DNA of 64,000 bases from an uncultured Gammaproteobacteria bacterium (GCA_964372855.1 CAYJRY010000001.1:18794-82793), one strand, 5' to 3'; shown: positions 945 through 33,965, counted from the first letter of the stretch. Notes: generated from the letters alone by a model not told the origin. Numbers and translations: made by a program.

Positions 945-1762
945 AAGGTAATTCACGATTCACTAAAATTGCAAAGGAAATAAGAAAAAATATTTTGTTA
1001 ATGGCAAATCGCGCCAAAAGCGCTCATACTGGAGGCGCATTATCGTGTGTTGAAATTATGGTGGCCCTCTACTTTGAGATCATGCATGTATTTCCCAAAG
1101 ACTCTCAAAATCAAAAAAGAGACCGTCTCATTTTTAGCAAAGCCCACGATGCCAAGGTATTGTATGCAGTACTCTCTAAGCGTGGGTTTTTTGATAAAAG
1201 TATTTTACAAGGGTACGAAATGGATGGAGGTCTTTTACCTGGACACGCGACTCGTCATTGCGTTCCTGGCGTTGAGGCTTCTGCCGGTGCTTTAGGACAT
1301 GGATTGTCTATGGCAGCAGGGATCGCATATGCCGGAAAACTTGATAATAAAAAATTTCGAGTTTTTGCAGTTTTGTCTGATGGAGAATGCGATGAAGGAT
1401 CAACATGGGAAGCAGCGCTTTTTGCATCACACCATAAGTTAGATAACCTTGTTACTATTGTCGATTATAACAAACTACAAGGCTTCGGGTTTACAAAAGA
1501 CGTGCTAGAACTTGAGCCTTTTACAGACAAATGGAAAAGTTTTGGCTGGGATGTTAAAGAAATTAATGGTCACAGTTTTGATGAGATTATAACAACTTTT
1601 AAAACTATCCCTTTTACTCACAAAAAGCCCTCTGTAATTATTGCCCATACCATTAAAGGCTTAGGAGGTGTACCCGCTCATGTAAATCAAGTTTCCTCTC
1701 AATACAAATCACCAACAGATGAGGAAGCAAATGAAGCAATAAAAAACCTAGACAATATATGA
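941..1762 (+). CDS. tkt: Transketolase, N-terminal (TPP-binding) subunit of a split transketolase
   Basis: 273 aa. It carries HTGGALSCVEIMVALYF, GHATRHCVPGVEASAGALGHGLSMAAGIA and SDGECDEGSTWEAALFASHHKLDNL, the classic transketolase N-terminal motifs. There is a 4-bp overlap with the downstream partner. Confidence 0.85.
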   Translation: MKGNSRFTKIAKEIRKNILLMANRAKSAHTGGALSCVEIMVALYFEIMHVFPKDSQNQKRDRLIFSKAHDAKVLYAVLSKRGFFDKSILQGYEMDGGLLPGHATRHCVPGVEASAGALGHGLSMAAGIAYAGKLDNKKFRVFAVLSDGECDEGSTWEAALFASHHKLDNLVTIVDYNKLQGFGFTKDVLELEPFTDKWKSFGWDVKEINGHSFDEIITTFKTIPFTHKKPSVIIAHTIKGLGGVPAHVNQVSSQYKSPTDEEANEAIKNLDNI

Positions 1763-2676
1763 GAATTGCTTTTGTCAACACATTAATAGAACATGCAAAG
1801 CTTGATAAAAGGATTATGCTCTTAACAGGCGATCTTGGTTTTTCTGTATTTGAAAAATATATCGAAGAATTACCCATGCAATTCCTCAATATGGGTGTCG
1901 CAGAGCAGAATATGGCGGGTGTTGCTGCTGGATTAGCAATGGAAGGAAAGATTCCAATTATTTATTCTATTGTTCCTTTTACGACAATGAGGAATTTTGA
2001 GCAAATAAGAAACGATATCTGTTATCAAAACCTTAATGTTAAAGTTGTTGGTGTTGGCGCTGGATTTTCTTATGGGCCTTATGGGCACACACATCATGCC
2101 TTGGAAGATATAGGAATATTGCGGACATTACCAAACATGGTAATTCTGTGTCCTGGTGATCCTCAAGAAGTGATTGCAGCAACAAAGGAAACATTGCGCT
2201 ACGAAGGGCCTGTCTATCTAAGATTGGGAAAAGCAGGAGAGATGGTAATTCATAAAAACACACCATCTTTTTCTATTGGAAAGGGAATTGTTATTGAGAA
2301 AGGGTCAGATATTGCAATCATTGCAACTTCAACAATGGTTTATAGGGCGTGGGAAGTTGCCCAAAAATTAAAGGACAAAAATATATCAACACATCTTGTT
2401 AGCATGATTTCCATAAAGCCACTAGACACAAATGTTATTTTTGAATCTGTAAATAAGACAAAGGCAATTTTTACTATTGAGGAACATAGTGTTGTTGGCG
2501 GATTAGGCAGTGCTGTTGCGGAGGTTCTTTCCGAAAATAGAGCAAATGCGATTTTTAAAAGAATAGGTGTTCCAGATCGTTTTACCAAAGTAATAGGAAG
2601 TCAGGAATATATGAGGACAGCAAATGGACTTACTGTCGAACATATAGTTAATACTATTTTGGAAAGGCTCAAGTGA
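1759..2676 (+). CDS. tkt: Transketolase, C-terminal (pyrimidine-binding/C-terminal domain) subunit
   Basis: 305 aa. It carries MGVAEQNMAGVAAGLAMEGKIP and FSYGPYGHTHHALEDIGILRTLPNMVILCPGD. It is translationally coupled to the N-terminal subunit. Confidence 0.85.
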   Translation: MRIAFVNTLIEHAKLDKRIMLLTGDLGFSVFEKYIEELPMQFLNMGVAEQNMAGVAAGLAMEGKIPIIYSIVPFTTMRNFEQIRNDICYQNLNVKVVGVGAGFSYGPYGHTHHALEDIGILRTLPNMVILCPGDPQEVIAATKETLRYEGPVYLRLGKAGEMVIHKNTPSFSIGKGIVIEKGSDIAIIATSTMVYRAWEVAQKLKDKNISTHLVSMISIKPLDTNVIFESVNKTKAIFTIEEHSVVGGLGSAVAEVLSENRANAIFKRIGVPDRFTKVIGSQEYMRTANGLTVEHIVNTILERLK

Positions 2677-2742: not shown

Positions 2743-3942
2743 TTAAGAAGAGGCTTTCTTAAGAAAAGATGTAAATACATCTTTCAGTCTGTCAAGGTTT
2801 TTCTTTTCAAGACCATGGTGACAACCGATTACAAAACCTCTTTCCATAATATCATCTGTGATTGGATATCCTGGGTTATTTGTCCTATGAGGAATCTTGT
2901 TAAAACCTGGTTGTCTTAAAATATTCCCAGTAAATATCGGACGTGTTTGTATATTGTTTTTTTCAAGAAAGGTCATTATTTCTAATCTTGAAAAAGGAGA
3001 GGATTTTCTAATCGTTAATGGAAAAGCGAGCCATTGAGTCCTACTATACTTATTTTGTTCGGGAAGAATAAAAAACTTTTCATACTTTTTAAAGAATTTT
3101 TTGAGTTCTGTGAAGTTTTTTTCTCTGATTTTTCTGAATTCCGGAAGTTTTTTAAGTTGGATATTTCCAAACGCAGAGCACATTTCATTTGGAAGAAAGT
3201 TATAGCCGATTTCGTTAAATATATATTTAGCATCATAAGGTATATTTCCGACTTTTATTTTAAATCGCTTATTAATATCTTCAGATTCATCAAAAATAGA
3301 CGAACTTCTTCCCCATCCTCTTAAAACTTTTGCTCTATCTCTCCATTCTTTTCTATTAATCAAGATCATTCCTCCATTTCCTCCGGCGGTTATTATATGT
3401 GAACCAAAAAAACTTGTTGTTGAGATGTCGGAATATGTTCCTGTCGGTTTTCCATTAACCTGTGCCCCAAGTGTATCGCAAGAGTCTTCGATAAAAATGA
3501 GATTATGTTTTTGAGCAATTTTTTTTAATTTTTCCATGTCGGGAATATTTCCAAGAAGTAGTGGAATCATAAGAACTTTTGTTTTTTTCGTAATGAGTTC
3601 TTCCACTTTATTGACATTTATAACATAGGTTCCGGCCTCTACATCCGCAAAGACAGGAATAAGTCCATGCTGAACAAGCGGCGCAACTGTTGTTGAAAAA
3701 GTCAAAAGAGGAGTAATTACTTCAGAACCCCTGGGAAGATTTAAAAGTTCAATTGCAAGGAAGTTTGCTGATGATCCGGAATTAACCATAACCCCATATT
3801 TTTTGCCAAAAAGTTTAGCGATACCTTTTTCAAAGATTTGAGTTTCAATTCCCATATTGGTTCTATGCTCTTTAAGAACCGCAACCACAGCTTGAATTTC
3901 TTCATCATCATAAACAGAAAGTGCGTATGGGACTCTTTGCAT
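2743..3942 (-). CDS. DegT-fold PMP-dependent sugar 3-dehydratase (ColD / E1-like), not a true aminotransferase
   Basis: 399 aa with a DegT/DnrJ fold (VMVNSGSSANFLAIELL, FIEDSCDTLGA). The position of the PLP lysine reads SFFGSHIITAGGNGG, with His in place of Lys. This is the hallmark of GDP-4-keto-6-deoxymannose 3-dehydratase (ColD) and the CDP-hexulose 3-dehydrase E1. The C-terminal RPIFTGNILRQ is also ColD-like. Confidence 0.65.
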   Translation of the reverse strand: MQRVPYALSVYDDEEIQAVVAVLKEHRTNMGIETQIFEKGIAKLFGKKYGVMVNSGSSANFLAIELLNLPRGSEVITPLLTFSTTVAPLVQHGLIPVFADVEAGTYVINVNKVEELITKKTKVLMIPLLLGNIPDMEKLKKIAQKHNLIFIEDSCDTLGAQVNGKPTGTYSDISTTSFFGSHIITAGGNGGMILINRKEWRDRAKVLRGWGRSSSIFDESEDINKRFKIKVGNIPYDAKYIFNEIGYNFLPNEMCSAFGNIQLKKLPEFRKIREKNFTELKKFFKKYEKFFILPEQNKYSRTQWLAFPLTIRKSSPFSRLEIMTFLEKNNIQTRPIFTGNILRQPGFNKIPHRTNNPGYPITDDIMERGFVIGCHHGLEKKNLDRLKDVFTSFLKKASS

Positions 3943-26775: not shown

Positions 26776-28101
26776 TTAACATCCAATTTCTCCAGGCTTC
26801 CCTATTATAACCATCTGCTTATTAATTCTCTTATAGTTTACATATTCTCTTAAATAATAAAATAATAGGAAAGTAAGAAGAATCAAAGAGACTATTACAC
26901 AAATAGACACTACTATAAAAAGTGAATCATGGTATAAGATTATAAGAAAAACCTGAGCAATAGCTGCCAATAAAACAGAAATATAGATATTGGTTTTTTT
27001 TATTGACAAAAAATAATACACAAAAAGCGAAATTAAAGAGTATATTGCTATGAATACTCCAAATAATCCTAGCAAACTAGAGGCGGATAAATATGCCTCG
27101 TTCTTTATGAAAAAAATTATGGCAAATCTTGGATACAAAAAATAAAATATAGAAATAAAAACAGAAGGAACAAATACCATAACAATCGCCATTTTGAAAG
27201 TATTGTTATAATTTTCTTTTTTTGCATGCTTTTTAATAATAAGAGGAAACATTACACTTCCTATAGGAGCTGTAAAGAAGAAGATAACCTTTCCGACTAA
27301 AGAAAGTCCAGAATAAATACCCGCTTGTACTGGGTCAAAATAATGCTTTACTAGCAAAATATCTGTTGAAATCAGAGATGTAATGCCTAAGAGAGTAATG
27401 GCTGAGGGAACTCCATAAGGAAGAATACTATTAAAACTAAACTTATACAAATTTATAGATTTTGTTAGAAAAACAAATCTCAGATAAAAAAACCCAAAGA
27501 TAATTGGCAATATAACTGAAATAAAAACTGCCCAAATTGCTCCTTTTACACCAAAACCCAAAAAAAACAAAATAACACCAACTAATAGTTTGGAAAATAA
27601 AGAAATAACATTTACAAAAGATATAAATTTGAATGCTAATTTTGCTTGTAAAAGTCCTCCACTTACAACTCCAATATAGGCAAAGCCAATAGTTATTCCT
27701 ATTATTACAATTATATTTCTATCAATCTTTAAAAAACGTCCTATCTGGTCTGCAAAAAACATAAAATAAAATAATGTAATAATGCTTACAATTAGAAGTG
27801 CTTTAATAATTTTTAAAGAGAATGTTTTAACAGAACTATAATCCTTTTTGGCGAAATGGGCTCCGGCAAAATTAACTATCATTGGAGTTAATGCTCCAAC
27901 GGGAATTCCAACAAGAGTAATTAATGAAATTGCGCTAATTAAGACTCCGTAATCTTCTGGAAGTAAATTTCTGCTCATAAATAAGTTGAAAAGCAAATTA
28001 AATATATTGGAGATAACAGAACCTATAAAAATATAGATACTTCCTGTCAACAATTCCTGCTTAAAAATCCTCTTGCTAAATAATAATATTCTTTCCTGCA
28101 T
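26776..28101 (-). CDS. Wzx-like flippase (second paralog)
   Basis: 441 aa, polytopic. The N-terminus IFIGSVISNIFNLLFNLFMSRNLLPEDYGV is homologous to 24880-26142. Confidence 0.6.
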   Translation of the reverse strand: MQERILLFSKRIFKQELLTGSIYIFIGSVISNIFNLLFNLFMSRNLLPEDYGVLISAISLITLVGIPVGALTPMIVNFAGAHFAKKDYSSVKTFSLKIIKALLIVSIITLFYFMFFADQIGRFLKIDRNIIVIIGITIGFAYIGVVSGGLLQAKLAFKFISFVNVISLFSKLLVGVILFFLGFGVKGAIWAVFISVILPIIFGFFYLRFVFLTKSINLYKFSFNSILPYGVPSAITLLGITSLISTDILLVKHYFDPVQAGIYSGLSLVGKVIFFFTAPIGSVMFPLIIKKHAKKENYNNTFKMAIVMVFVPSVFISIFYFLYPRFAIIFFIKNEAYLSASSLLGLFGVFIAIYSLISLFVYYFLSIKKTNIYISVLLAAIAQVFLIILYHDSLFIVVSICVIVSLILLTFLLFYYLREYVNYKRINKQMVIIGKPGEIGC

Positions 28102-29165
28102 TATTTCCCTGCAACTTTTCTATACACTAGTATAGTATCATCTATTGTTTTTTTCCAATTGAACTTTCTTGCCCTAATTAAACCTTTCTTATAAAGAGAC
28201 CCTTGAACAGACTCGCCTAAGAATACTTTCTTAATTCCACTGGCAATACTGTCAACATCATATGCATCAACAAAATATGCCGCGTCTCCCGCAACCTCAG
28301 CTAGCGATCCTTTTTTTGTAGTAACAACTGGGCACCCACAACTCATTGCTTCTAAAATTGGCAAACCAAAACCTTCATATAGGCTTGGCATTGTAAAAAC
28401 CGTTGCTATGTTATATAAAGTTACCAAATCTTCTTGAGGGATAAAGCCTAATATAAAAATATTTTTGTCATTTGCTGTTAACGTCCTCACTTTTGCGAGA
28501 TCCTGATTCCAGGGATTTTTTATTTCTATATCTTTTTCATCTAAAGCATGTCCCACCATTACCAATGGAATATCAATCTTTTTTATTGCCTCAATTAATC
28601 TTGGTAAGTTTTTATTCCATGTTACATCTCCAACATATAATGCAAACTTATTCGGTAAATTGTATTTTTTTCTAAAAATTTGATCTTTGACATTTGAAAT
28701 TTTATTTTTTTTAAATTCTTCTGAAGCGGCAAGGTAAACAACATGTGTCTTTTCATCCTTAATATCTGTAAAATTAATAATATCTTTTTTTGAGGACTGC
28801 GAATCTGTTATAATTGCTTTTGCTGAATTTAATGACATTTTCTGTAAATTCCATTTAATTTTTCCCCTGATTCCCGATGGAAAATATTTTTTAAAAACTA
28901 AAGGAGTTAAGTCATGAACTGTTACAATTGTTTTATGTTTTTTTAAGAAAGGTAGAGTTAAAAAAAACGGTTCAAAATAAGGATAATGAACTATGTCGGT
29001 ATTTTCGGGTATTTTTTGTTCTCGAGTAAAAAAAGTATACTTATTTTCGGGATAATATTGCAAAAGGAACTTTTTTAAATTTTTAATATAAAAACCTGTA
29101 CCCCTAACTCTGTGAGCAAGAAGGTTTTCACTTTGAATAGGAGAAACATCAATCGCGATATTCAC
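28101..29165 (-). CDS. GT4-family (GT-B) glycosyltransferase
   Basis: 354 aa. It has MPSLYEGFGLPILEAMSCGCPVVTTKKGSLAEV. An N-terminally similar remnant lies at 33666-33965. Confidence 0.7.
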   Translation of the reverse strand: MNIAIDVSPIQSENLLAHRVRGTGFYIKNLKKFLLQYYPENKYTFFTREQKIPENTDIVHYPYFEPFFLTLPFLKKHKTIVTVHDLTPLVFKKYFPSGIRGKIKWNLQKMSLNSAKAIITDSQSSKKDIINFTDIKDEKTHVVYLAASEEFKKNKISNVKDQIFRKKYNLPNKFALYVGDVTWNKNLPRLIEAIKKIDIPLVMVGHALDEKDIEIKNPWNQDLAKVRTLTANDKNIFILGFIPQEDLVTLYNIATVFTMPSLYEGFGLPILEAMSCGCPVVTTKKGSLAEVAGDAAYFVDAYDVDSIASGIKKVFLGESVQGSLYKKGLIRARKFNWKKTIDDTILVYRKVAGK

Positions 29166-29352: not shown

Positions 29353-31018
29353 CTGGATTTATTTTGTATAAGAAGACGATAAGGATGCCTAAGGAAAATA
29401 AAGTGATATAAGTACTTACCTTCCTTACAAATGTGTCATTGAATTTAATCTCAACTAAATTTAGTCCTTTTTGTATTTTGAAGGTAAAAAGTCCATTTTT
29501 GGTTGCTTGAGCTTTTGTTTCTTTGTTATTCACATATACTACCCAATTAGGAAAATAGGCTGTGTTTACTTGCATCAATGATTGCTCAGCTGCTTCTACT
29601 TCAAACCTATAATAAGTACTCTTGATTGTATGGCTTTTTATTTTGCCCTCTCCTTTTAAAAACTCAATTTTTGAGTTTTGACTTTTAAGTTTGGTATCAA
29701 AAATAACAGTGTTAAAAACATTTCCAGGACTATTGGTTCCGTGAATAAAGTTAGATCGGCTAATGTAATAATTATCATCTCTATAATGATAATAAGCTGG
29801 GTTTGTATATCCTATCCCAAAAAAGAAAGAAGTCAAAATCAATACTATCCCCAACAACTTACTTTTCCAAAAATAAATAACTCCTCCGCTTAAAAACGAA
29901 GAAATAAGTATCTCAAGACTTAAAAATCTCCAAGGAAATTGAAAATAGTTCATAAAAATAACTGACTGCCAGATTGGTGCAGAACTCTTAAGCATCAGAA
30001 ATAAAATAAAGAAAAACCAAGCCAAAAAAAAGATAAGTATGCCCATCTGTTTCATCCCAAGCGACCCCAAGAATATATGCAGCCTCAAGTCAGCGAGATT
30101 GGTTCTCCCGATTTTCACAATGACTAACATTAAACACATAATTACCACTAATAAATTTGCTATCCCTATCTGGAATGACATTTGATTTGAAATATTTTCT
30201 CCAGAAAACCCAGAACCCCAAGAAGGAATAATAAGTTGATAAAAATCTGGAAAATGCCTTGAAACATCAAATATTTCAAGACCTCTTACGTAATCTCTCT
30301 CCAGTATCGCAGGCAACCAAAAAACAGTTGACAAACCAAGACCTAAAAGTATTAAGTATAAAGCATTAAGTATTAGGTATTTTTTATTTTGTTCTTTACT
30401 AATCAGGTATACAACATATGATAGGGCAAAAATGAAAAACATGAGAGCTAATATGTTGTGGGAGAATATAATTAAGGCCAAAAATATAGATGATAATATA
30501 AAAAAAGAATATTTTCTTTCTCTTATAAAATTAGCTATTGACCATAAAAACGCTGGAAAAAGTGCTAATGACCAAGCTTCCCCTACTGAACCTCTAATAT
30601 AAATATCTAAAAAATGATACGGCGAATATGTATAAAATACTGAAGAAACAATTCCTCCATTTACACCCCAAAAGTTTTTTGTCCACAAATAACAAAATAC
30701 TGCTCCTATAATTAATGATAAAAACATTTCTAATTTAAATATATCTATAAAACTTAAATTAAAAAATCTAAAAAAAGTAGCTATATAATTGGGTAATGGA
30801 TAAACATAATTAAAAAGAGGAACTCCAAATCCATTATTCAAATCGGGTGCCCAACGAGGATATAAATTACCATCCAAAAAAGTTTTGTTGAATTGATAAA
30901 ATCTTACTATATGATATTCTCCATCATGAGTCGGAGGCAAACCTTTGTGAAGTAGTGGTAATCCAGAAACGATAGCGAAAATAATAACAATAATTATCGG
31001 GTAAATATTTTTAACCAT
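29285..31018 (-). CDS. Large polytopic membrane protein, YfhO-like GT-C candidate (paralog group Y)
   Basis: 577 aa. It has more than 10 TM helices plus a C-terminal extracytoplasmic domain. Its first loop THDGEYHIVRF...NLYPRWAPDLNNGFGVPLFNYVYPLPNY is shared with 42550-44205 and, more loosely, with 54407-56923. Confidence 0.45.
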   Translation of the reverse strand: MVKNIYPIIIVIIFAIVSGLPLLHKGLPPTHDGEYHIVRFYQFNKTFLDGNLYPRWAPDLNNGFGVPLFNYVYPLPNYIATFFRFFNLSFIDIFKLEMFLSLIIGAVFCYLWTKNFWGVNGGIVSSVFYTYSPYHFLDIYIRGSVGEAWSLALFPAFLWSIANFIRERKYSFFILSSIFLALIIFSHNILALMFFIFALSYVVYLISKEQNKKYLILNALYLILLGLGLSTVFWLPAILERDYVRGLEIFDVSRHFPDFYQLIIPSWGSGFSGENISNQMSFQIGIANLLVVIMCLMLVIVKIGRTNLADLRLHIFLGSLGMKQMGILIFFLAWFFFILFLMLKSSAPIWQSVIFMNYFQFPWRFLSLEILISSFLSGGVIYFWKSKLLGIVLILTSFFFGIGYTNPAYYHYRDDNYYISRSNFIHGTNSPGNVFNTVIFDTKLKSQNSKIEFLKGEGKIKSHTIKSTYYRFEVEAAEQSLMQVNTAYFPNWVVYVNNKETKAQATKNGLFTFKIQKGLNLVEIKFNDTFVRKVSTYITLFSLGILIVFLYKINPAPFFRGILIPHRIGAGLTHAKK

Positions 31019-32130
31019 AACTTTTCTTTGAAAAGATAGAAAAATACTACTCCAAGTGGAAAAATAAATGTTAATATTGTTTTTATAATAGAAGTCTTAT
31101 CGTCATATATCCCCGTTAGCATGAAAGGTATATATCTAAGAAGTAGTCCAAGACTAAGCGATATGGATATAGCTAATAAAAACTTTCTTTGTGGGATAAG
31201 AAATGAAAATGACAAAAACCATATTGCATACCAAGGATATATTTCCTCTCTAAGTGGAGACATTAGAAATCCAAAAAACATTGCTAATGCCGAATAAAAA
31301 TATACTTTTCCCCAATTAATAGATTCATTCTTCAATTTTTTAAAAAATACATAAACAAAAATAGGCAAAAGAACAATAGTTGCATATTTTATAAAAACTG
31401 ACAATAAAAAAAATAAAACTGATAATTTAATTTTATTTTTCATTAGTAAAATGAAAGATAATAGTGCAAAAAAAATCATTACTATGTCATTATGGCCACT
31501 AACTAAAGTTTCTAAGACTACAAGAGGATTAAATGCAAATAGTCCAATGGATACTAATCTATTTGTCATTTTCCAAATAAGAAAAATGGTGCCAATATAA
31601 AATAAGGAAATAAGTAATTTAAAATTGAAAAGAATAAGTATAAAATTACTAAAACCAAACAAAAATGGAATCCCAGACATTAAAATCCAACTTGGTCCGT
31701 ACAACGCGATTTTATTTGCTGCATGAGTAAAAGAAAGTAAAGGATCTCCAACAAATTCAATCGGCATAATAATATATGGATTTTCCTGATAAAAAAATAA
31801 AACCTTTGAGGTAGCTATATAATTAAAAATATCATATGAAAGCATTGCAGGATATGAAAATAATAATATTAAAGCGGTTATTAAGATAATTAATCCGAAT
31901 TTTTTAGAGCTAAAGTAATTGTTCTTAATATATTTAAGAAATAAAAAATAAAATAAAAAACTTAAAAAAACAGTTAAAATGTAAATTATTGTTGTCTCCA
32001 ATCTATGCTTATATGAGAAACCAGAATAAATATTTTGTAGGTAACTAAAATTAGGATCTATAAATAAATAAGAACAAATAGCCACAAAAATTAGAAAAAC
32101 AAAATAAAAAACAATTAAAAATTTTTTCAC
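30994..32130 (-). CDS. Polytopic membrane protein, DUF2029/GT87-like GT-C candidate
   Basis: 378 aa, all-helical membrane protein. It has an SYDIFNYIATSKVLFFYQENPY loop motif. The C-terminal LGLLLRYIPFMLTG is echoed in the remnant at 38346-38564. Confidence 0.35.
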   Translation of the reverse strand: MKKFLIVFYFVFLIFVAICSYLFIDPNFSYLQNIYSGFSYKHRLETTIIYILTVFLSFLFYFLFLKYIKNNYFSSKKFGLIILITALILLFSYPAMLSYDIFNYIATSKVLFFYQENPYIIMPIEFVGDPLLSFTHAANKIALYGPSWILMSGIPFLFGFSNFILILFNFKLLISLFYIGTIFLIWKMTNRLVSIGLFAFNPLVVLETLVSGHNDIVMIFFALLSFILLMKNKIKLSVLFFLLSVFIKYATIVLLPIFVYVFFKKLKNESINWGKVYFYSALAMFFGFLMSPLREEIYPWYAIWFLSFSFLIPQRKFLLAISISLSLGLLLRYIPFMLTGIYDDKTSIIKTILTFIFPLGVVFFYLFKEKLWLKIFTR

Positions 32131-32645
32131 AATACTCTTTTTCTAATATTAATAGCACTATCAATTGATTTAGCTAAATCAAGAAATATGGATGAGCTTT
32201 TCTCGGGTTCCCAATTAAATGTTTTTGGAATTTCTTCTAAACTTCTAAGAACTTCTCTGTGTTTTATCTCCGCTTCTTTAAGAAATAATTTATTATGGGA
32301 AATATCTTTTTTTTGATCGGCCTTTATATAATGTATAGTTTTAAGAAAATAAGAATCTGATTTTTTAAGAGCACTGATTCCAAGCAAATACTGTCTGTAT
32401 TCAAAGAGAGTTTTTGCCTCAACTAAATATTTATCTGAGTACTTCAGATTATATTTAAACTGCCCTAAATCACCAAAATACCAAAACTTGGATATTTTTT
32501 CCCAAATAAGTTTTATTGTATATAACTTACTTCCTGGCATACCTGATGGATACGGAAGCACGTAGTTTGATTCTGCAAGGCTGATGTTACTGAAAAATAT
32601 TAAGAGGAACAATGTGGGCATCAGTACCCAAAAACATCTTATCAT
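32127..32645 (-). CDS. Secreted/signal-peptide protein of unknown function (paralog S1)
   Basis: The likely true start is the internal Met (MIRCFWVLMPTLFLLIFFSNISLA), which makes an ATGA overlap with the upstream stop. The mature region YVLPYPSGMPGSKLY...FGDLGQFKYNL...YLVEAKTLFEYRQYLLG...HREVL is about 55% identical to 38610-39125. Confidence 0.45.
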   Translation of the reverse strand: MIRCFWVLMPTLFLLIFFSNISLAESNYVLPYPSGMPGSKLYTIKLIWEKISKFWYFGDLGQFKYNLKYSDKYLVEAKTLFEYRQYLLGISALKKSDSYFLKTIHYIKADQKKDISHNKLFLKEAEIKHREVLRSLEEIPKTFNWEPEKSSSIFLDLAKSIDSAINIRKRVL

Positions 32646-33640
32646 TTTGAATTTTGAATTTTGAATTTTGAATTTTTTGTGTGCCATTCAAATGCAGTTG
32701 CAACAATAGTTTCAAGATCAGAATATCGAGGTTCAAATCCAATCTCCTTCTGAATCTTTTTTGCGTCAGCTATTAGAGCTTCTGCGTCACCACTTCTCCT
32801 ACTTTTTACTTTAACCTTTAGCGTTTTTCCTGAAACTTTTTCGACCATTTCTATTACTTCTTTATTCGAATAACCTATTCCTGTCCCAATATTATAATAA
32901 AATCCCCCCTTATCTCGATTAATTTTATCAAGAGCCAAAATATGGCCCTCAATAAGATCTATGACATGTATATAATCTCTTATGCAAGACCCATCGTAAG
33001 TATTATAATTAGATCCATATAAATTAAATTCAGTGTCATTTATAGCTGCATCTATTGCCAATGGAATAATATGTGTTTCAGGATTATGCAATTCTCCTAA
33101 TTTACCATCGAAAGAAGCCCCTCCCGCATTAAAATATCTTAGACTTACGAAACTTAGCCCTACATTATTTTGAAAATAACTTAACATTTTCTCAACTTCA
33201 AGCTTGTTTTCTCCATAAGGACTAGTTGGATTTTTCGGGTGATCCTCAGGAATTGGTATTTTAATAGGATTACCGTAAACCGCGGCTGATGATGAAAAAA
33301 TTAGTTTATCTATATTTCCTTTTCCAATCATTGTTTCGACAAGATTTTTTGTTCCTGTTACGTTATTCTCATAATATTTCTGCGGATCTTTTGTTGATTC
33401 TTCAACGGAAATGTAACCAGCAAAATGCATTACAGCATCAATTATTTCATCTTGAAATAAATTCTCAAGAGTTGCTTCATCTTTAATATCGCCACTTACA
33501 AATTTTGCCCTGTCGTCAATAGCTTTTTTATATCCTCTCTCCAAACTGTCAAAAACAACAACCTTATTATCTAGATCAAGAAGTCGCTTAGTCATAAAAC
33601 TTCCAATATATCCTGCTCCTCCTGTAACAAGTATTTTCAT
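32642..33640 (-). CDS. UDP-glucose 4-epimerase-like (GalE-family) extended SDR
   Basis: The true start is probably MKILVTGGAGYIGSF. The ORF-track start at 33715 adds 25 atypical residues. It has SSSAAVYG...YGENK catalytic motifs. The C-terminal tail is encoded by the 7-bp repeat. Confidence 0.7.
   Translation of the reverse strand: MKILVTGGAGYIGSFMTKRLLDLDNKVVVFDSLERGYKKAIDDRAKFVSGDIKDEATLENLFQDEIIDAVMHFAGYISVEESTKDPQKYYENNVTGTKNLVETMIGKGNIDKLIFSSSAAVYGNPIKIPIPEDHPKNPTSPYGENKLEVEKMLSYFQNNVGLSFVSLRYFNAGGASFDGKLGELHNPETHIIPLAIDAAINDTEFNLYGSNYNTYDGSCIRDYIHVIDLIEGHILALDKINRDKGGFYYNIGTGIGYSNKEVIEMVEKVSGKTLKVKVKSRRSGDAEALIADAKKIQKEIGFEPRYSDLETIVATAFEWHTKNSKFKIQNSK
32645..32672. repeat. Perfect heptanucleotide tandem repeat (TTTTGAA)x4, followed by a T6 tract
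   Basis: Read directly: ttttgaa ttttgaa ttttgaa ttttgaa tttttt. It lies in the last codons of the GalE-like gene (encoding ...KNSKFKIQNSK*) and immediately abuts the coupled start of the secreted-protein gene. Confidence 0.8.
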
Positions 33641-33665: not shown

Positions 33666-33965
33666 CTATACCGATCCCGAATCGTTATAACTATGACACA
33701 ATCCAAAATCTTCATATAAAGATGGCATTATAGATAGTGTTAGAAAAAGTGGTTCAAGATATGGATAATATACTATATCAATATTTTTGGGTAATTTTAC
33801 TCCTCGAGTAATAAAAATGTTCTTATTATTTGGAAAATAATTTAATAGAGAGCTTTTTAAGTTTTCTATGTAAAACCCTGTTCCCCTTACCCTTTGCTGG
33901 ATGTCTGTTGTATTATTTATAGGAGAAATATCCATTGCAATATTCATTTCCTTATTATACAACAA
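33666..33965 (-). pseudogene. Remnant of a GT4 glycosyltransferase with an internal deletion
   Basis: The 99-aa ORF joins an N-terminal segment homologous to 28101-29165 (MNIAMDISP...VRGTGFYIENLK...DIVYYPYLEPLFLTL) directly to the C-terminal MPSLYEDFGL motif. About 250 aa of GT4 core are missing. Confidence 0.55.

Follow-up and report, generated by a model that had tools for sequence, protein, structure and literature searches.

The window analysed here is a stretch of 64,000 nucleotides (GCA_964372855.1 CAYJRY010000001.1:18794-82793) filed under an uncultured Gammaproteobacteria bacterium. It represents a Levybacteria-like genome of the candidate phyla radiation, and its relatives are Levybacteria. 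The window contains about 31% G+C and is dense in glycan genes. Our subject is a perfect heptanucleotide repeat at the junction between the gene for a UDP-glucose 4-epimerase (GalE) and the gene for a secreted protein. The genes around the tract are all on the minus strand, and the features of the junction are the following.

32642 to 33640, minus strand: GalE, UDP-glucose 4-epimerase, 332 amino acids, with matches to the TIGR01179 equivalog and to Pfam Epimerase
32644 to 32676, minus strand: heptanucleotide tract, (TTCAAAA)x4.7, recognized from the period-7 run, a Markov test and the same 28 nt in nine diverged lineages
32642 to 32645, minus strand: ATGA stop/start overlap, formed by the GalE stop TGA (32644..32642) and the downstream start ATG (32645..32643)
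32127 to 32645, minus strand: DUF5667-like secreted protein, 172 amino acids, with an N-terminal signal peptide; same as database protein P0001
30994 to 32130, minus strand: polytopic membrane protein, GT-C-like, 378 amino acids; its start overlaps the DUF5667 stop and it is the next member of the coupled chain

GalE scores 395 bits against the TIGR01179 galE equivalog (cut-off 262.3) over residues 2-325, and the model ends at residue 325. Its C-terminal tail reads ...FEWHTKNSKFKIQNSK*, and the last seven residues represent a 21-nt insertion, equal to three units, relative to the 325-residue form of relatives; one-copy orthologues terminate in WHxKNSK*. The ATGA overlap, in which the start lies one base before the GalE stop, is seen at most syntenic loci compared. 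The secreted protein begins MIRCFWVLMPTLFLLIFFSNISLA..., its Pfam DUF5667 match is sub-threshold (E 2.4e-4), and a YVLPYPSxMPG motif is kept throughout its family. The 378-residue protein shows a weak GT87/DUF2029 match (E 0.33), orthologues at its position have PF26314 MptA_B_family, and downstream of it follow a YfhO-like protein and then a GT4 enzyme. Exact look-up of the window GalE in public assemblies gave no record, the downstream protein was present on one contig only, and a protein search with the GalE tail returned only fragments. The 55 large open reading frames (ORFs) in the window are essentially without Shine-Dalgarno motifs upstream, A and T predominate in their leaders, and gene starts often overlap an upstream stop as ATGA or GTGA. 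Taken together, this indicates that initiation appears to be Shine-Dalgarno independent.

On the plus strand, positions 32645..32672 are exactly (TTTTGAA)x4, which the minus (coding) strand reads as (TTCAAAA)n. Perfect period 7 is kept from 32644 to 32676 (33 nt, 4.71 copies, 100% matches, TRF score 66), and T's continue 3' of it to 32678 on the plus strand, the T6 occupying 32673..32678. The tract encodes the last 10 GalE codons and makes up the 28-33 nt directly 5' of the downstream ATG. Within the 64-kb window it is the sole perfect tandem repeat with a unit of at least 4 nt and a length above 15 nt, and 100 third-order Markov simulations gave longest periodic runs of 16-23 nt, compared with the 33 nt of the real tract. 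Short-run heptamer enrichment was not seen within the window, and there is no regulon-like recurrence of one unit at many gene starts, with this single long tract in 64 kb. The tract is a perfect repeat whose 7-nt unit is not divisible by three, and it lies inside and abuts an ORF, as is typical of phase variation mediated by simple sequence repeats (SSRs). It also resembles the TAACTGA repeats discussed below, with two to six heptamers a few nucleotides from a start, overlapping an upstream stop and lacking a Shine-Dalgarno site. The first-pass annotation had described four exact TTTTGAA copies followed by T6, placed in the last codons of a GalE-like epimerase and ending at the ATGA-coupled start of a secreted protein gene. 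The sequence, TRF and the GalE equivalog match all agree with this description.

Searching with a profile of the downstream protein gave 80 loci at species level (L001-L080, 483 kb), about 57 of which share the gene order GalE then DUF5667. Six loci (L004, L037, L049, L026, L059, L006) are in a one-copy state, with NSK*, a single TTCAAAA and the ATGA overlap. Perfect, in-frame and ATGA-coupled TTCAAAA x4 is present in the window and in L001, L012 and L035, whereas L039 carries ATCTCAA x4 in the same arrangement. Two loci (L007, L017) show the four-unit coupled state with two unit variants each, in L060 and L011 the four units have decayed and are still ATGA-coupled, and in L013 the four-unit state is built of AAAAATG, a unit that takes in both the ATG and the TGA. 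Further loci use units that contain a stop, namely TTTAAAA (L014, L003, L002, L063), TTTGAAA (L025) and GTTAAAA (L068). There GalE terminates within the tract and the remainder is a spacer of 5-32 nt. Scanning metagenome contigs for exact matches yielded seven further GalE junctions, all with 4.3-4.4 copies.

The 28-nt four-unit tract is 100% identical in at least nine lineages in which GalE is 50-78% identical, and across nine carrier lineages the 4-fold sites of GalE are saturated, with an identity of 0.29-0.52. The occurrence of identical 28 nt in such diverged lineages means that the GalE tail is neither recent nor private to the window genome, and the earlier view that this unusual tail reflects a recent repeat expansion has to be given up. 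The carrier lineages are scattered in a poorly resolved GalE tree, and the neighbour-joining tree is too star-like to separate single from multiple origins of the four-copy state. Among stop-free alleles none with 2, 3, 5 or more units was seen except the 3-unit L273; all others are as long as 4 units or 1 unit and retain the ATGA overlap, so common in-phase and out-of-phase alleles over a wide range of copy numbers were not observed. A GalE-DUF5667 fusion was not found among 5.8 billion protein clusters with a query spanning the hypothetical junction; the matches to this query were all 101-199 amino acids long and covered it by at most 63%. The first-pass annotation had itself named a four-copy tract shared by related strains as a fixed coding feature as the outcome that would speak against a switch, and this is what the orthologous junctions of related lineages show.

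We modelled the gain and loss of units in the window. Removal of one unit gives a GalE of 348 amino acids, which has 16 additional residues and reads across the downstream start. Addition of one unit gives an in-frame fusion of GalE with the downstream protein (506 amino acids), and changes by three units restore the present arrangement. The models thus agree with the earlier claim that a one-unit change frameshifts the end of GalE and breaks the coupling. The catalytic body up to the W-H residues is untouched and frame changes alter only the tail, as in C-terminal phase variation. The alternative frame corresponds to the following stretch.

32587 to 32641, minus strand: 16 extra GalE codons read if one unit is lost (model), with the stop at 32589..32587

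A 51-residue ORF at 32587..32742 matches this frame, and its natural analogue is L273, in which GalE has 354 amino acids.

L273 belongs to a carrier species of the L169 type, whose GalE is 58% identical to that of the window. This species was covered by 27 contigs from Rifle-aquifer assemblies, of which 19 places were read and 15 aligned. L273 (ENA ERZ4903137, a 36.7-kb contig) has 3 units and the other places read have 4; the 4-unit contigs include ones from ERZ4903125, ERZ27254754 and ERZ28563625. This suggests a polymorphism in repeat number in the related species, with 3 units in one (possibly two) of the 27 contigs in an otherwise identical background. Over 4474 nt, a 7-nt deletion is the sole internal difference between L273 and L269, and an alignment of the 15 sequences over 3 kb contains four columns with single-nucleotide polymorphisms (SNPs) and one indel, the L273 deletion. 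GalE of L273 is called as 354 amino acids and crosses the downstream start (..NSKFKIQNEEILQVC...), which is the predicted minus-one-unit state. No length change was found in the species with decayed tracts (P0091, 6 places; P0090, 6 places), in the one-copy species P0317 (10 places from 23 contigs) or between L118/L186 and L088/L178. The population check proposed in the first-pass annotation, carried out here on assembled contigs of related species, yielded one shorter allele, with four units at all other places read in that species. Of the slipped-strand phase-variation switch that it had suggested, slippage is supported by this allele; the switch is not, as otherwise only lengths of 4 or 1 units were seen among stop-free alleles and no fusions were found.

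Heptamers are favoured in the related loci in general. Counting perfect repeats of at least two units plus 6 nt over the 483 kb, we found 27 with period 7, compared to 1, 2, 0 and 0 for periods 5, 6, 8 and 9. The GalE junction accounts for 11 of the 27, and the remainder recur at homologous sites with differing units: a loop of a GT2 enzyme, the GalE leader and the DUF5667 signal peptide. Another recurrent heptamer site lies in the YfhO-like protein, just before GLGLSxFFWxP. Tracts other than the junction mostly lie within genes; those inside genes are all in frame, and none is longer than 33 nt. Decayed heptamer-derived coding segments are present in the window as well.

30347 to 30381: decayed (AATACTT)x5, at the YfhO-like site
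29669 to 29692: other decayed heptamer-derived coding segment
63129 to 63166: other decayed heptamer-derived coding segment
48955 to 49007: other decayed heptamer-derived coding segment
50583 to 50674: other decayed heptamer-derived coding segment

The peptides derived from decayed segments in the window are KLKSQNSK, EISILKPQISNLK and ISNIK.QI.KIQIKY. Outside the related loci, (TTCAAAA)x3 followed by TGA has more than 120 exact matches in unrelated metagenome contexts with 29-65% G+C (L081-L200), many of them GC-rich. Judged by eye from the flanking codons, some of these look like linkers before C-terminal sorting domains of the Bacteroidetes type IX secretion system, with the context pattern ..GI(E/K)x-IQNSKFKIQNSKFKIQN-(D/E)xVYDLSGR; other sites are intergenic and follow small GC hairpins, their copy number ranging from 3.1 to 5.3 across related loci. 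The motif also appears in print for Lyngbya, where it stands upstream of jamI (PMC2799420). We considered (TTCAAAA)n as a special mobile cassette and rejected this, since composition-matched control heptamers in four copies are about as frequent in viral contigs (27 versus 23 and 18 loci). The spread of (TTCAAAA)n thus reflects the general abundance of heptanucleotide repeats.

Two other readings of the junction itself were rejected. One concerns the N-terminus of the secreted protein, for which the downstream ORF can be extended upstream.

32646 to 32687, minus strand, -1 frame: upstream extension of the downstream ORF (MAHKKFKIQNSKFK), judged not to be the real N-terminus

The conserved 'MAQ' of MAHKKFKIQNSKFK consists of the GalE W-H codons in another frame, and stops interrupt the extension in L001, L012, L035, L039 and all lineages with stop-containing units. 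An ATG within the GalE W-H codons (aATGGCAca) together with a stop-free repeat gives rise to a spurious MAQxKFKIQNxKFK start in gene calls. In public calls this extension is present in P0002-P0007, P0010, P0014, P0022, P0031, P0035, P0037 and P0042, and also in P0052, P0058, P0068, P0071, P0072 and P0089. The other reading, a programmed -1 frameshift at A_AAA_AAT producing a GalE-DUF5667 fusion, is rejected because the slippery site is not conserved (L012 and L035 have AAT AAT there) and no fusion protein was found in the clusters searched; in addition, the -1-frame ORF is closed in L001, L012, L035 and L039. At the junction there was no match to an Rfam family, no excess of promoter or terminator signals and no unusual RNA stability (z = +0.57 versus shuffles). 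When the tract is reduced in silico from four copies to one, the mean unpaired probability around the start falls in five of eight carriers (mean 0.59 vs 0.48), a small effect that is not consistent between carriers.

The tract is probably a persistent, slippage-active heptanucleotide microsatellite that is held at four units by selection on the reading frame and on the ATGA overlap, although we hold this with no more than moderate confidence. The ancestral GalE would have ended in W-H-x-K-N-S-K-stop, encoded as AAT TCA AAA TGA, with one TTCAAAA unit and the TGA overlapping the next ATG. Three added units (+21 nt, +7 amino acids) would then have produced the four-copy form. As 7 is not a multiple of 3, only copy numbers equal to 1 modulo 3 keep the GalE stop on the ATGA, and selection would therefore hold 4 units, or 1. 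Replication slippage may homogenize the copies to a constrained 'master' copy beside the ATG, a form of concerted evolution. The L273 deletion, together with homogeneous arrays of differing units at the same site (L039, L013, L025, L014, L068), points to continuing slippage and turnover filtered by frame. Slippage would yield one-unit variants at low frequency, a loss causing a 16-codon read-through and a gain fusing GalE with the secreted protein. In a genome without Shine-Dalgarno usage, both would be expected to break the link between termination and re-initiation along the chain of DUF5667, GT-C and YfhO-like genes. We infer that such variants would affect expression, and they could be either useful, as in true phase variation, or simply tolerated.

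Several points weigh against this explanation. Copy number is strikingly fixed at four here, whereas at classical contingency loci strains differ widely in copy number and often carry OFF alleles, and four units are short for high-rate slippage. The lone out-of-frame allele was found in a species different from that of the window genome, and L273 is an assembly consensus and not a set of reads, so an assembly error is possible. The altered last residues of GalE may be without phenotype. The path from one to four copies passes through two out-of-frame intermediates, which the model leaves unexplained. Finally, the variants with stop-containing units (L014, L025, L068) have about 3.3-3.7 perfect copies though the frame is irrelevant there, which hints at selection on the length or sequence of the tract and not on the frame alone.

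It is possible, although we find it doubtful, that the tract is a fixed, non-switching feature, in which a bias toward heptamer slippage produced an in-frame tail insertion of seven residues and an A-rich leader that were then frozen and play no regulatory role, the rare 3-unit allele being a deleterious transient mutation or an assembly error. Such a history would fit the presence of four copies in every carrier lineage and in 26 of the 27 contigs of the L169-type species (species A), as well as the lack of fusion proteins in the clusters searched. It would also fit the decayed four-unit junctions of L060 and L011, which hold their length without further indels, and the frequency of heptamer repeats at many in-frame sites of related loci. 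Heptanucleotides are, moreover, the most abundant long SSR class in bacteria according to the statements on Mrazek 2007 in PMC4679880 and PMC4692102. A frozen neutral insertion should, however, have undergone synonymous decay like its flanks, yet the tract is 100% identical in nine lineages, and the homogeneous arrays of differing units at this site need ongoing turnover. Slightly less likely is an extension of the slippage-active microsatellite to a Levybacteria 'phasome', in which heptamer tracts at fixed hot spots of surface-glycan clusters (the GalE/DUF5667 junction, the GT2 loop, the YfhO-like GT-C site, the GalE leader and the DUF5667 signal peptide) serve as contingency loci that switch glycan genes or translational coupling. 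The GalE junction would then be a three-state switch with a coupled, a read-through and a fused state.

Selection could also act on the nucleotides themselves. The tract might be a translational element, either an unstructured A-rich leader of about 30 nt or an array bound by S1 or by a cold-shock-domain protein, that drives or tunes Shine-Dalgarno-independent initiation of DUF5667 as proposed for the Beggiatoaceae TAACTGA repeats; we regard this as improbable. Regardless of its unit, the tract is always found 0-32 nt 5' of the start, and it is built of A-rich units in about 3.3-4.7 copies even where these contain a stop and are partly outside GalE. Its nucleotides are exactly conserved, the genome has no Shine-Dalgarno usage, and there is a precedent for two to six heptamers just upstream of starts and overlapping upstream stops (MacGregor 2015, PMC4679880). 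Many orthologous junctions nevertheless function with one copy or none, and the lowering of the unpaired probability at the start upon deletion to one copy, seen in five of eight carriers, is missing in the other three. The region is no less structured than shuffled sequences and matches no Rfam family, and the variation of the unit between lineages makes a sequence-specific binder unlikely. There is also one such tract in the 64-kb window, against 169 sets in the Beggiatoaceae genome. Most improbable of all is a recombination linker, in which the conserved identity block of 28-33 bp would be a crossover point for swaps of GalE/downstream cassettes between diverged Levybacteria. Between L035 and L088 (L035 1588..3384), identity is 98-100% upstream of GalE, falls to 52-69% within GalE and is 91-96% from the W-H codons and the tract into DUF5667, a pattern that suggests replacement of the GalE cassette with its 3' breakpoint at the tract. 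This is a single example, however, in a locus that is mosaic at many repeat-free places too; a chance breakpoint is expected beside any conserved block, and neither the period of 7 nor the differing units are accounted for.

If one-unit variants of the microsatellite are functional, they would provide a simple route to diversify the expression of cell-surface glycan genes, which are relevant to host attachment and phage escape, in genome-reduced bacteria of the candidate phyla radiation. They would also represent an unusual form of phase variation, acting via stop/start coupling and gene fusion and not via ON/OFF truncation. Should the 'phasome' be real, it would be the first SSR-based phase variation described in these ultrasmall, host-dependent bacteria; among the papers searched, none combines 'phase-variable' with 'Patescibacteria'. 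Even if the variants are non-functional, the junction is a clean natural case in which a coding microsatellite evolves in concert while its frame is filtered 'modulo 3'. There is also a warning for annotation, as many homologues of the downstream protein in databases have a spurious repeat-encoded N-terminus.

Some observations concern the neighbourhood of GalE. The 99-residue ORF directly upstream (33666..33965, minus strand) is what remains of a GT4 glycosyltransferase. Over its residues 7-80 it is 59% identical to residues 1-74 of the GT4 enzyme at 28101..29165, and the match then jumps to MPSLYE.FGL (residues 259-268), which indicates an internal deletion of about 185 residues. Some relatives (L290-L293; 1128..1490 in L290) have a 120-residue gene between the GT2 gene and GalE, with matches to Pfam 23S_rRNA_IVP / bAvd, an accessory protein family of diversity-generating retroelements. 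L035 has a 120-residue ORF at the same position (1638..2001), whose stop overlaps with a tract of GTCTTAA x3.7, 15 nt ahead of the GalE start. Within one species, the YfhO-like gene is called 22 residues shorter at its 5' end when L300 and L303 are compared with L301 (around 3118..3184). The alignment contains no indel, and a start-changing SNP is presumed.

A close parallel among known systems is the C-terminal phase variation by 3'-end SSRs in Helicobacter canadensis (Snyder et al. 2010, PMC2823697). There, as here, a repeat that is not a multiple of three lies in the last codons, a change in its length swaps the C-terminus without abolishing the protein, and the cases include an NAD-dependent epimerase/dehydratase in a surface-glycan region. 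The Helicobacter canadensis tracts are poly-G runs of 11-14 nt with clear length ranges at the read level, whereas at the GalE junction we find a heptamer in four copies and one variant allele, in an orthologue. Unlike those tracts, the GalE repeat abuts an ATGA overlap, so that length changes would also alter the coupling to the next gene or fuse the two. Slippage of one 7-nt unit that toggles a reading frame or an expression level is also known from the 7-bp repeats in the hmw promoters of H. influenzae. The duplication and loss of GGTGCCC in Pseudomonas fluorescens pflu0185 is a further case (bioRxiv 10.1101/2024.05.01.592015). In both of these the tract is at the 5' end or in the promoter and switching is reversible with a phenotype, while the GalE tract is a candidate for such switching.

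TAACTGA heptamer repeats upstream of starts have been described in marine Beggiatoaceae, cyanobacteria and Bacteroidetes (MacGregor 2015, PMC4679880). They share with the GalE junction the presence of two to six tandem heptamers a few nucleotides from a start, often overlapping an upstream stop, and the rarity of Shine-Dalgarno sites in the intergenic regions that carry repeats. In that system about 170 sites per genome share one unit, which has a stop in each forward frame. The window differs in having a single site in 64 kb, with a unit that lacks stops and encodes the GalE tail, and related genomes use other units at this site. As for bacterial heptanucleotide SSRs in general, three tandem heptanucleotide repeats in the cyanobacterium Calothrix PCC7601 are cited in PMC4692102. 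As far as these citing papers describe such repeats, the Levybacteria ones resemble them in that period 7 is favoured, arrays are short and units vary between relatives at the same loci. The repeats described there are mostly intergenic, whereas those of Levybacteria lie in frame within coding sequence, and this location would restrict their length to about four units.

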